The position numbers and the translations under genes are program-made. A stretch of 64,000 nt of DNA. Source: Spirochaetia bacterium. GTDB taxonomy: Bacteria > Spirochaetota > Spirochaetia > CAKZLE01. Where the stretch lies: assembly GCA_963677595.1 (NCBI GenBank), contig OY782041.1, forward strand, positions 352,001 through 416,000, read 5' to 3'. Positions 24,035 through 27,902 of the stretch are shown piece after piece (the first letter of the stretch is position 1; each line of letters starts with the position of its first letter). The notes under the pieces are model-generated. The model had not been told where the DNA came from, searched no databases, and saw only the letters and a list, made by a program, of their open reading frames with translations.

Positions 24035-25469
24035 ACAGACCTCCTTGGTATTCTCTCTGCGGACAGCTTGAAGACCTGTTCGGGCTGCCCGCAGGAACTC
24101 ATAAAAAAGATTATCAGCTTGTATATGGCATGGAGTGGGAGGGCATGGCGAGCTGTACAGACATACACAGGCTCTATGTTCAATTATATGACCGCATTCT
24201 GAGAAGTCAACGTTATATTCATAATATTATTGAGTTTCTTTCTATGTTTCTTTGAGTGTTTTTATCTATTCACCTGCTATACAATCACTTTTACCATGCA
24301 CCCTATCAGTGATCATGGTATAGGGCTACCCTATGTGTCATTCCGTATGATACCTCATTCTGAACCCAGCAGGATGCTCCCCTCCACTGACAAGCCTGCC
24401 GGTATCTGCTACACTGATGCCATTCCTGGCAGTATCAGCCGGGGACTATCTCCCATATCATGGAGGCACTTCAGATGAGACATGACATACAGTTCCCCAG
24501 GATGGCCATGGGCACCTGGACCTTCGCAGGCGATACGATCTGGGACGCCTCTGACGAACAGGAGTCTATCTCCGTCATCCATGCTGCCCTCGATATGGGC
24601 ATCACCCTCTTCGACTCCTCCCCCAATTACGGGAACGGGCGCAGCGAGTCCATCCTGGGTAGGGCCCTGGCTGATCACCCTGAAGCTATGGTCGCAACAA
24701 AGACCAAGATCCAGGGGCAGAGTCGTGACGCTTTGAGGGCTGCTGTAGAAGGTAGCCTGAGGAGGCTCGGAAGAGAAGCGATCGACCTCATACAGATCCA
24801 TTGGCCGGGCACTCCCGAGGAGACCGCTGAGGCACTGGGACTCTTCATGGAGATGCGTCAGGAAGGGGAGATCCGGGCTGTCGGGGTATGTAATTTCGGA
24901 GTATATGACCTGAAAGAGACTGCAGGCTATCCCATCATCAGCAACCAGCTGCCGTACAACCTGATGTGGCGGGTCATTGAGAGGGAGATAGCTCCTCTTT
25001 CCAAAGAGATGGGGAAGCAGGTATGGGTCTATTCCCCGCTTCAGCAGGGGCTGCTGACCGGGAAATATTCCGACCTCACTGGTTTCCCATCGGGGAGGAA
25101 ACGTACACGGCATTATGCATCCTCTCATCCAGCAGCGAACCATGGTGAGGCAGGAATGGAAGCTGAGACACAGGCTGCATTGACAGGATTCCTTGAGATA
25201 GCTGAAGAGACCGGTATTGGACCGCTGGAACTGGGGCTCCGTTATATCCCACATTCCTCACTTTCATGACGCACACATAGCAGGATTTTCCATTTCAGGA
25301 AAGGATTGAGACTACGAAGGGCTATTCATCCTTACCGATCCTCCACACGGCATAAAAATCGGCAAATCCGCCTGGTTGCTACCCCGTCTGAACAGACATG
25401 CTGATGATCAGGACAGTAACCAGCCTTCTCATAGGTTCTGAGGATCAGACGCAGGTACACCTACGAAGT

Positions 25470-27173
25470 TCATGCATGCAGAGAGGTCAGGACACACCTC
25501 ACCCCCTTGTCGTAGAATACGCGTTCATCAAGACCCAATGCAGACAGGAAGGCCAACTGACGGGAAGAGAGCGGATTTACCAGCACCGCTTCTGCTCCCA
25601 TCTCTGCCGCCATGATACCGCCAAACACGGTACTCATCATGAATGAAGTCGGCTTTGCCGTCGGTTTGTTGTCCCAGCCTGGTACCGTAGTACCTTCCTT
25701 CTGGAGATACCGCCGCATCTGCCGCTCCATCAACCGCCAGACCATCAGGGCGATCACGAGAATCATCCCCAATGCATCTATGCGGGAAGGGGTTTTCAGA
25801 AACAGGTCATTGACTACCAGGGGATCCTTGAGGAATGAAAAATCACTCTCGATCCCATACTGGCCTTTGTACGTACGCAGTACCGATGCGGCATCAAGCG
25901 ATGCAACAGCAACATTGGTAAGCAGCACAAAACATCCTGCCTGCTCTCTGAGCACCTGCAGCTTGTCCGACTTTTCGGTGATCTCCCAGTTCAACTCATA
26001 CCGCAGATCTACAGGCGGCGGACCCTCCTTCGGGGGACGTCCACGACGCCGAACCGCCACTTCTTGGATCGTAACCGTTAACGAGTGCAGCGGGGAAGAG
26101 ACCGCAGCGAGGTTGGCAGCAGCAACCTGCGCATCTTCGCTGCAGTAATACTGTCGCTGAACTTTCTTCAATTTCCCGTTCAGCTCCTTCAACGATTGCT
26201 CAATCGCTTTGTCAATCTTCTTCTGCCTTCGCTTATCATGGGAACTCGAATGTATCACGACCCCGCGATAGGGCTTTTCATACAACGTTACCGTCGTCTC
26301 GCACCCCTTATAGATCGCAGGAGGCCGGTTCTTCCCTGTTGGTGTTTCAGCCATCATGCCTATGGGACTCCAGCGACCCGCTCCGATCGCTTCCCTTATT
26401 GCCTGGTCACATGCGCCGTAGGTTGCCGGAAGACGGCTGATGAATGGCATCGACCCTAAAGCCTCCAGATTCTCCTGCGTCACCATGGCCGAGTCTGCAA
26501 CATAGATACAGGCCCCATCTCCCAACCCATGTCGGGAGAGCAGTGTACTGATCCGTGTGAGCATCGCATTGTTAGACGTCTTGTCTGAGGAGTTCCCATT
26601 GAGGGTACTGCTGAAGATTGGGACCCCATGATCCACGCACAGTAACTCCGTCATGAACTGCTTGAGATCCGGTCGGTGATCCTTGGAGTGCCCCAGGACG
26701 ATCGAAGGCCCCGGGGTCTTTTCCTGCTCACTCCCCCGGTATTCCCCCCAGACACTCGTACTGGTAGTATCGTAACTGAGGGCATGCATATCCAGATCGA
26801 AGACCTGTGCTGCCCGAATCCCCAGTTCGGTCACAATCTTCGATGGGCCGGCATCGAAGATCGCATCCAGGGACCGAGCTATGTTCGTGTCATTGAACAG
26901 ATGCGGATCTACCTCCTGTCCCAGCAATAGGCTGCGGTTCTGCTGCTCGATGAACTGCTCGATCCGATACAGCGGCGACCGTCCATGCAGGACATCGAGC
27001 ACCATCGTCTGCACCACGAGCCCCGGAGATAGCTGCATACGGGTCTCCACCGCCGCATCCACGATGTCTCTCAACCCGAGCATGCGGCAGTAGGCCGCCG
27101 CAATGGGCAGGTAGGAATGGGTATAGATTCTGGTATGCTGAAACAGGGTTGAAAGGGGCGGAGTACTGGCCAT
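25470..27173 (-). CDS. IS1634-family transposase
   Basis: FNDTNIARSLD (DUF4277-like), YDTTS, GHSKDHRPDLKQ, NGNSSD, YVADSA and YKGQYGIESDFSFLKDP. Confidence 0.93.
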   Translation of the reverse strand: MASTPPLSTLFQHTRIYTHSYLPIAAAYCRMLGLRDIVDAAVETRMQLSPGLVVQTMVLDVLHGRSPLYRIEQFIEQQNRSLLLGQEVDPHLFNDTNIARSLDAIFDAGPSKIVTELGIRAAQVFDLDMHALSYDTTSTSVWGEYRGSEQEKTPGPSIVLGHSKDHRPDLKQFMTELLCVDHGVPIFSSTLNGNSSDKTSNNAMLTRISTLLSRHGLGDGACIYVADSAMVTQENLEALGSMPFISRLPATYGACDQAIREAIGAGRWSPIGMMAETPTGKNRPPAIYKGCETTVTLYEKPYRGVVIHSSSHDKRRQKKIDKAIEQSLKELNGKLKKVQRQYYCSEDAQVAAANLAAVSSPLHSLTVTIQEVAVRRRGRPPKEGPPPVDLRYELNWEITEKSDKLQVLREQAGCFVLLTNVAVASLDAASVLRTYKGQYGIESDFSFLKDPLVVNDLFLKTPSRIDALGMILVIALMVWRLMERQMRRYLQKEGTTVPGWDNKPTAKPTSFMMSTVFGGIMAAEMGAEAVLVNPLSSRQLAFLSALGLDERVFYDKGVRCVLTSLHA

Positions 27174-27204
27174 CGGTATCCTCCTGTAGCGGTCGTGGAA
27201 ACAG

Positions 27205-27263
27205 GACTTGACTGATCACTGAACCTACTGTATTATACAGTAGGACAAGAGAGGAGTCAAGTC
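27205..27263. promoter_or_regulatory. Symmetric overlapping divergent sigma70 promoters with a central palindrome
   Basis: GACTTGACT-N10-CCTACTGTA-TTA-TACAGTAGG-N10-AGTCAAGTC gives TTGACT-17-TATTAT on the plus strand and TTGACT-17-TATAAT on the minus strand. Confidence 0.8.
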
Positions 27264-27626
27264 ATGACCACCGAGACGGCACAGAAGCGCCTTCAGGTAC
27301 TTCGCCGCAAACAGCAGGAACTCGCCAAGGAACTGAGCACGATCGAATTTATCTGGTCAGGATCCATCTCCAAACGGTTTCTTACCTGCGGGAACCCCTC
27401 GTGCAAGTGTCATACAGACACTGAGGCCAAGCATGGACCGTATTACTATTGGACGACCAAAAAGGGCGGGAAGACCGTAGCCAGGAAGCTCACAGAGCAG
27501 CAGGCTGAGGTCCTCCAACCATGGATTGAGAACAGGAGAACCCTGGAGAAGACGATGAATGCCATGAAGAAGCTCTCTCAGGATGCGTATGAAGCCATTT
27601 TGGTCCTCTTGGACGATGAAGGGTAG
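27264..27626 (+). CDS. DUF6788-like putative Zn-binding protein carried inside the IS
   Basis: GSI...CGNPSCKC...HGPYYYW motif flanked by coiled helices, with RBS GAGGAG. The family is assigned from memory of the motif. Confidence 0.8.
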   Translation: MTTETAQKRLQVLRRKQQELAKELSTIEFIWSGSISKRFLTCGNPSCKCHTDTEAKHGPYYYWTTKKGGKTVARKLTEQQAEVLQPWIENRRTLEKTMNAMKKLSQDAYEAILVLLDDEG

Positions 27627-27902
27627 CGCTTTTTAAACCGATTTTAGCCCGAAATTAAATACCCGTTTTTTGCTGAGAAATAGTGAGGAATGTGGGTTAT
27701 ATCATGAGCCACAGCTTCATAGACACCCTGCTTGTAGGAGCCCGATCAGTCAAGCAGCTTGCCGACCTGTATGCATCAAGTGAGGGATCACTTGATCCAT
27801 CGATCGTCGAACGGCTTGATGCCGTATCACAGCCGCTCCTTACAGCGACGAAAGGGAACCCGGACATGTACCAGTCGGTATCGCGGGTACGGTACTGATC
27901 AG

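Follow-up and report, generated by a model that had tools for sequence, protein, structure and literature searches.

A two-gene IS1634 element and its copies in the host genome

The window, by which the whole analysed stretch of 64,000 nucleotides is meant, contains an insertion sequence that has broken an aldo/keto reductase-like host gene and that carries a transposase gene and a divergent small gene between its ends (Table 1). The small ORF had been called DUF6788-like from the letters alone, and the profile search bears this out, with 111.5 bits for PF20586 against a gathering cut-off of 27.2 and profile positions 3-101 of 103 covered. The transposase exceeds the cut-off of the NF033559 family, and PF14104 (DUF4277) spans its residues 20-117; it also contains a basic motif, RRRGRPPK, at residues 375-382, which resembles an AT-hook.

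Table 1. Features of the element and its surroundings, in window coordinates
Feature	Position	Strand	Basis or remark
Aldo/keto reductase-like host gene, 5' part	24460..25247	+	outside the element; broken by the insertion
Left target-site duplication TTATAT, 6 bp	25242..25247	+	sequence
IS1634-family insertion sequence, 2,449 bp	25248..27696	.	8 copies in the host genome
Terminal inverted repeat, transposase 3' side, 15 bp perfect	25248..25262	+	
IS1634-family transposase, 567 aa	25470..27173	-	NF033559 287.2 bits, cut-off 100
Shine-Dalgarno-like AGGAGG, for the transposase	27180..27185	-	sequence
Split dyad, 59 bp (two -35 boxes and central palindrome)	27205..27263	.	
Predicted sigma70 promoter toward DUF6788, TTGACT-17-TATTAT	27208..27236	+	promoter scan; kept in relatives
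Predicted operator CCTACTGTA-TTA-TACAGTAGG	27224..27244	.	over the two -10 boxes and the predicted starts of both genes; family consensus CYTACNGTA-N3-TACNGTARG
Predicted sigma70 promoter toward the transposase, TTGACT-17-TATAAT	27232..27260	-	promoter scan; reverse -35 in 39/48 relatives
Shine-Dalgarno-like AGGAG, for DUF6788	27252..27256	+	sequence; abuts the reverse -35 box
DUF6788 gene, 120 aa; C42/C47/C49/H57	27264..27626	+	predicted homodimeric DNA-binding repressor
Terminal inverted repeat, DUF6788 3' side	27682..27696	-	
Right target-site duplication TTATAT, 6 bp	27697..27702	+	sequence

In the available part of a source on the family (PMC2266710), the IS1634 family is characterized by an NF033559 transposase, target duplications of 5-6 bp that are mostly AT-rich, ends starting with C (consensus C-----YT) and a length of 1,500-2,000 bp, and no mention of an accessory ORF was found there. 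The ends of the present element, terminal inverted repeats starting with CCCACATT... and perfect over 15 bp, fit the C-----YT consensus, and its target duplications are 6 bp long in all 8 host copies, with a TT start in 6 of them and at least four A/T among the six bases in 6 of them. Its size and second gene lie outside the published range and the usual single ORF, both of which are typical rather than defining, and the excess in length is due to the extra gene, so the element is a two-gene variant of IS1634. A literature search returned no title on a two-gene IS1634 element, ISfinder and TnCentral, which may list such elements, being outside that search; extra ORFs of insertion sequences are described, in the part available of another source (PMC3281130), as having a mostly unknown and probably regulatory role.

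The host genome (G000) holds eight copies with 99.9-100% identity, six of them intact and two broken by later insertions, and all eight are flanked by target duplications, which indicates recent movement of the element. One of the broken copies was split by the element itself (C1:1683475-1688378), a second copy lying inside its transposase gene with a 6-bp duplication of its own. The other has within its transposase gene a different IS1634-family element with a 575-aa transposase and other ends (C1:1735102-1737253), and no operator-like site was found upstream of that 575-aa transposase gene. With the target duplications of the eight sites read in the orientation of the element, 6 of 8 start with TT and the junction at the right end is always GGG-target, which suggests an oriented target preference. 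Another peculiarity is a non-coding stretch of about 220 bp 3' of the transposase stop (window 25248-25470), whose length but not sequence is kept in the close clade, the other clade having about 60 bp.

The presence of the small ORF inside the terminal repeats had led to the expectation that it moves with the element, and copies lacking it would have spoken against any role in it. In fact, all eight host copies carry both the ORF and an identical dyad, and the inverted repeats enclose the two genes in 27 of 29 related loci that have a long divergent ORF and flanking DNA, one of the two misses having no transposase.

A split dyad over two overlapping predicted promoters

The intergenic block 27205-27263 reads GACTTGACT-N10-CCTACTGTA-TTA-TACAGTAGG-N10-AGTCAAGTC and is symmetric about position 27234 in 23 of 29 positions, the next best centre of the window reaching 18. 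Its dyad score of 20.8 compares with a maximum of 11.6 in 100 shuffles, and there are 14 centres with at least 23 symmetric positions genome-wide, including those of the 8 IS copies. The sequence-only reading was correct about this symmetry but not about the gap between the genes, which it gave as 59 bp: the start codons are 90 bp apart (27174-27263), and the 59 bp are the symmetric part. With the sigma70 consensus as the term of comparison, a promoter scan recovers exactly the two overlapping promoters with 17-bp spacers and -10 boxes in the central palindrome that had been proposed, against 0.9 sites expected. By the usual spacing, transcription would start at about 27243 (+) and about 27225 (-), the two edges of the central palindrome.

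Conservation of the 21-bp core in related elements

A metagenome scan gave 152 confirmed DUF6788 loci, of which the best 80 were kept. A divergent IS1634-like transposase lies beside DUF6788 in 64 of these 80; in 7 the DNA upstream is too short by the rule applied, and the remaining 9 have another arrangement or escaped detection. The IS1634 transposases of these relatives fall into two clades, A and B, which are 29% identical to each other and have different terminal repeats, and the DUF6788 proteins are 45% identical between the clades. Among sequenced genomes, DUF6788 was found above cut-off in 10 of 401 of the phylum of the window, including the host genome itself, and in 1 of 401 of a second phylum. 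A plasmid search gave one record, and an order-level search gave no further loci. The sole single-protein match in GTDB contigs (L011) was discarded as spurious, there being no DUF6788 in that genome, as was the sole protein match in viral contigs (L116); 13 exact operator matches in viral contigs were treated as chance, none of them lying beside DUF6788 and most falling inside ORFs.

Forty-eight sites, taken from 56 distinct divergent loci and anchored on the forward promoter (eight loci without the anchor were left out), define what is kept: the forward -35 box, the central CYTACNGTA-N3-TACNGTARG and the reverse -35 box, with nearly free stretches between them. Offsets ±4, 7, 8, 9, 10 and 11 from the centre carry 1.0-2.0 bits, and offsets 12-20 mostly less than 0.75 bits. 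The forward -35 is nearly fixed, whereas the reverse one is present in 39 of 48 sites, at spacers of 15-18, and in the other 9 none is found at 15-19 nt. Since the stretches between the -35 boxes and the core are nearly free, the outer arms are simply the two -35 boxes, and the four-arm symmetry of 59 bp that had been put forward as a unit stands for its central 21 bp, which are conserved, but not for the outer 9-bp arms.

At most two mismatches to the consensus occur upstream of DUF6788 in 62 of the 75 loci with enough upstream DNA (from the best 80 of 152, not deduplicated), a figure that measures conservation and not independent prediction, since the consensus was derived from the same loci. 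As a control, an equal stretch inside the ORF never had fewer than five mismatches, so that 0 of 75 came to two or fewer. The dyad is therefore conserved in related elements, as a core of 21 bp rather than over the whole 59 bp.

The DUF6788 protein

The family comprises 1,606 representatives at 50% clustering, and no paper naming DUF6788 or PF20586 was found in the literature outside subscription journals and bioRxiv supplements. In an alignment of 109 sequences, H57, G58 and P59 never vary, and conservation reaches 90% or more at C42, C47 and C49; to judge from this pattern, C42, C47, C49 and H57 are putative zinc ligands. The gene is under purifying selection, with dN of 0.03-0.10 against dS of 0.19-0.85 in 8 of 8 pairs.

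An AlphaFold2 model with a pLDDT of 97 shows a helix (residues 3-24), strands at 34-40, 57-67 and 70-76 and a second helix (78-119), that is, a predicted helical hairpin and a three-stranded beta-sheet head with the Cys3His group. The head (34-76) has 9 K/R against 2 D/E. A homodimer is predicted with a score of 0.79, the best control giving 0.00; at least 97% of the contacts recur between runs, and the pLDDT is at least 91. Of 30 proteins whose structures were solved as pairs, 20 come up to the scoring mark, as does 1 of 23 single chains, counts that hold only roughly here. The predicted interface consists of residues 17-32 and 79-116 and runs through the helices, which would leave the two heads free.

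Comparison with solved structures gave a best E of 0.2 in the PDB by sequence and, with Foldseek, no match at E<=0.001 for either the whole protein or the head. VIA-align found for the whole protein helical hairpins only (best Z 9.0), and for the head a best Z of 4.7, to a PH domain; from the beta-sheet DNA-binding folds considered (integrase arm-binding, AP2, WRKY), an arm-binding domain (Z 3.0, rmsd 4.1, 47 residues aligned) came up within background; a missing structural match does not by itself demonstrate a new fold. The ESM Atlas returned DUF6788 clusters only, with no usable match once these were skipped, and no fused domain exceeded the cut-off in 19 longer homologues. Two assignments were tried and rejected. 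One was a detached N-terminal (beta) domain of long IS1634 transposases, for which hhalign gave a probability of 0.8% and a score of 14.1 against 12.3 for the best of 30 column shuffles. The other was a ribbon-helix-helix protein: Pfam gives DUF6788 only, with no ribbon-helix-helix family down to E=1, and the modelled order is helix, three strands, long helix.

DUF6788 beside other transposase families

The sequence-only reading treated the gene pair as an IS1634 feature, but the cassette is not specific to that family. DUF6788 adjoins transposases of the IS1182 (L097, L100, L105), IS630 (L019) and ISNCY (L120) families above cut-off, and below cut-off those of ISNCY (L121), IS1380 (L115), IS701-like (L021, L117), IS630-like (L042), IS66-like (L016) and IS6-like (L017) elements, with the two genes either codirectional or divergent. 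Beside the three IS1182 transposases and the IS1380 one, the promoter of DUF6788 itself retains a GTA-N3-TA(C/T) dyad. For these proteins of the same subfamily, the operator has 3 mismatches in L105, 4 in L100, 4 in L115 (with 11/11 symmetric positions) and 5 in L097, the last being the floor of the control; no clear site was seen in L042 (5 mismatches) or L043 (7 mismatches). The examples of the operator outside IS1634 are few and degenerate. Promoters in distant DUF6788 subfamilies are overlaid by different or weak dyads, which a shuffle test finds significant in L018, L021, L025 and L028 and not significant in L015 (p=0.97), L030 (p=0.30) and L032; in L019 and L117, dyads over the promoter are visible by eye.

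A candidate autorepressor and its operator

Considering these data together, it is likely, with a probability of roughly two in three, that a DUF6788 homodimer binds the 21-bp palindrome at which the two predicted promoters overlap and represses both genes at once. Each head would read one TACNGTA half-site, the half-sites being 10 bp, one helical turn, apart, and the modelled two-headed dimer would suit a two-fold site of this spacing. The dimer would cover both -10 boxes and block RNA polymerase at them. In a naive cell, a newly arrived copy would then give a burst of transposase and repressor, after which the repressor would damp all copies in trans through their common site, in a negative feedback on DUF6788 and transposase alike. 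The brake would tighten with rising copy number. Such feedback on every copy would amount to a copy-number brake rather than a toggle, and the best reading of the sequence evidence is a portable autorepressor-operator cassette.

The small protein could also bind asymmetrically and repress one promoter while the other is permitted or activated, which would be a true switch between transposase and small ORF, as had been suggested for this locus. The two promoters are indeed mutually exclusive, since their -10 boxes overlap, and the greater variability of the reverse -35 box next to the nearly fixed forward one fits an unequal treatment of the two. However, a single two-fold symmetric site over both -10 boxes and both predicted starts, read by a dimer that is itself predicted to be symmetric, would be expected to cause joint shut-off and not a choice between genes, and the codirectional DUF6788-IS1182 loci have no opposing gene to switch to. 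A switch appears improbable for these reasons, and the symmetry of the site points away from the one proposed earlier.

A similarly improbable explanation is that the symmetry is a by-product of overlapping sigma70 promoters and template-switch repair, with DUF6788 assisting transposition in some other way and not binding to this site. In its favour, offsets ±2 and ±3 and the outer arms coincide with the -10 and -35 boxes, and DUF6788 stands almost always beside a transposase. Yet sigma70 needs account for offsets ±2 and ±3 only, those at ±4, 7, 8, 9, 10 and 11 lying beyond them; ±4, 7, 8 and 10 are near-invariant in identity without a sigma70 role, and the 21-bp core survives in the nine sites that have no reverse -35 at 15-19 nt. 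Moreover, the partner transposases come from unrelated families, which argues against a transposase-specific protein contact.

The dyad could also form a cruciform or hairpin in the DNA through which supercoiling would gate the two promoters, whether or not a protein takes part. The site of the window folds at -7.5 kcal/mol, and offsets 6 and 10 show double changes that keep the symmetry, L089/L098, L107, L078, L091 and L111/L114 being examples, with offset 6 symmetric in 39 of 48 sites against 49% expected (0 of 2000 permutations, among kin that are not independent). A stem could produce such double changes, and so could half-sites that coevolve or a quasi-palindrome repaired by template switching. 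Against a cruciform, offset 5 pairs in 22 of the 48 sites and is unpaired in 26 (11 T.T, 5 A.A), the folding energies vary between 0 and -9.3 kcal/mol, 12 of the 48 sites being weaker than -2 on both strands, and the loop has no fixed sequence beyond the needs of the -10 boxes; the mismatches at offset 9 are 7 T.G and 7 C.A. In a duplex site read by a protein, some positions are fixed in identity while the rest may vary, and the 21-bp site looks to be of this kind rather than a hairpin. Gating by a cruciform is quite unlikely, and an RNA hairpin is unlikely as well, since neither predicted transcript would hold both arms.

If a protein reads the duplex, the transposase might be the one that does so and regulate itself through the dyad. 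The site usually adjoins an IS1634 transposase, and IS1 InsA, in the part of the source available (PMC12428005), sets the precedent of a transposase DNA-binding domain that can repress. The terminal repeats of the two clades, however, differ from each other and from the operator, and operators from clade A resemble those from clade B (77%) as closely as clade B operators resemble one another (73%), despite a transposase identity of only 29% between the clades. In a scan of the phylum, 24 of 26 IS1634 loci lacked DUF6788, and in all 24 (15 of them with the full 260 nt upstream) the site had at least five mismatches. The two IS1634 loci with DUF6788 have 1 mismatch (L155) and, in a distant subfamily, 6 (L153). 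The dyad also occurs beside IS1182 and IS1380 transposases. As the site is unlike the terminal repeats, equally alike across clades and missing from IS1634 loci without DUF6788, the transposase is an unlikely reader on sequence grounds, and autoregulation by it carries very little weight.

Least credible is a LexA-like host regulator, whose case rests on the likeness of the half-site TACTG to the SOS box of E. coli: the spacing is 3 bp shorter than in that box, the T of its CTG falls on a free position, and the 8 exact sites of the host genome all lie within IS copies, with none at one mismatch and two at two mismatches, which makes the host an unlikely reader too. The inner core TACNGTA-N3-TACNGTA without the outer bases occurs just upstream of a host gene (G000:C1:4271358), at near chance level.

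It is DUF6788, and neither the transposase nor the host, to which the dyad is linked, and circumstantial evidence points to DUF6788 as the likely binder of the predicted operator. The covariation of palindrome and protein for which a survey had been proposed did not show up within the subfamily, operator and DUF6788 distances giving a Spearman rho of 0.07 (50 loci). The trees of DUF6788 and transposase are largely congruent (rho 0.71, 50 loci), so the two mostly travel together and are hard to separate.

Comparison with known regulators of insertion sequences

IS-encoded repressors are already known as a kind, and what is new here is the unstudied family DUF6788 with a well-defined candidate operator. 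The closest analogue is Arc, which in IS605 elements occupies the bidirectional promoter and represses it, according to ChIP-seq and reporter data in the available part of a preprint (Moon, Zedaveinyte, Wiegand, Sternberg; bioRxiv 10.64898/2026.09.24.754181). In both systems, proven for Arc and predicted for DUF6788, a small separate IS-encoded protein binds a bidirectional promoter between genes of the element that encodes it and represses transposon genes, its own among them; homologues of Arc, too, adjoin many other mobile and cellular genes (10.64898/2026.09.24.754181). Two marks of such an autorepressor, a separate small gene inside the ends of the element and a conserved site overlapping the promoters of the element itself, are both present here. 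As far as the part consulted of that source goes, Arc is a ribbon-helix-helix protein in IS605, whereas DUF6788 has a predicted Cys3His beta-sheet/helical-hairpin structure and occurs in DDE elements; the Arc motifs of P. xylanilyticum overlap one -35 and one -10 box, whereas here one palindrome covers two overlapped -10 boxes; and repression by Arc was shown experimentally, whereas that by DUF6788 is predicted from sequence and model.

Looser parallels, again from sources available in part, are InsA and Orf121. InsA of IS1 is an element-encoded autorepressor with a zinc-finger motif that damps the transposase in trans (PMC12428005), as predicted for DUF6788, but it corresponds to the N-terminal region of the transposase, produced when the -1 frameshift does not occur, and its binding sites are the terminal repeats (PMC12428005), whereas DUF6788 is a separate divergent gene whose predicted site is internal and unlike the terminal repeats. 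Orf121 of IS91, likened here by description, is an accessory ORF of about 120 aa that lowers transposition in cis or in trans (10.1101/2025.01.24.634351); it differs in being codirectional and bicistronic with tnpA and in acting partly at the insertion step (10.1101/2025.01.24.634351).

If joint autorepression by DUF6788 is correct, an unstudied family whose head has no clear match among solved structures would gain a function and a precise 21-bp binding site, and DDE insertion sequences, usually drawn as single-gene elements, would be able to carry a dedicated and exchangeable repressor cassette. What was found in 2026 for Arc and IS605 would then hold for another fold and for several further IS families, and the compact pair of overlapped promoters with one operator may serve as a small bidirectional regulated promoter. 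A bolder version, which is doubtful, sees in DUF6788 a class of DNA-binding regulators not described so far, dimeric and with a zinc knuckle, which would pass like a plug-in from one transposase family to another unrelated one and take its palindromic operator and its promoter along. Zinc shortage or oxidation would release the brake through the Cys3His group, and the elements themselves would thereby sense host stress.

Unusual loci among the relatives

Several loci depart from the common arrangement. In L062, at about 410-500 and just 3' of DUF6788, the right end of the element is followed by 6 bases, the left end and then the 3' end of the transposase, which is either a circle junction or two copies with one common target duplication. 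In L046 (1161-1455), two copies in the same orientation enclose some 265 bp that do not belong to the element, which amounts to a minimal composite structure. DUF6788 genes without a transposase occur in L043, L061, L063 and L036; L061 and L063 have the right half of the operator only, and L036 has the whole operator and adjoins an IS200-like gene. Finally, in L120 (58-1827) DUF6788 continues in frame into the ISNCY transposase, with 589 codons open, whereas its close relative L118 has a separate DUF6788 ORF, so that the joined frame of L120 is either a fusion or a frameshift variant.
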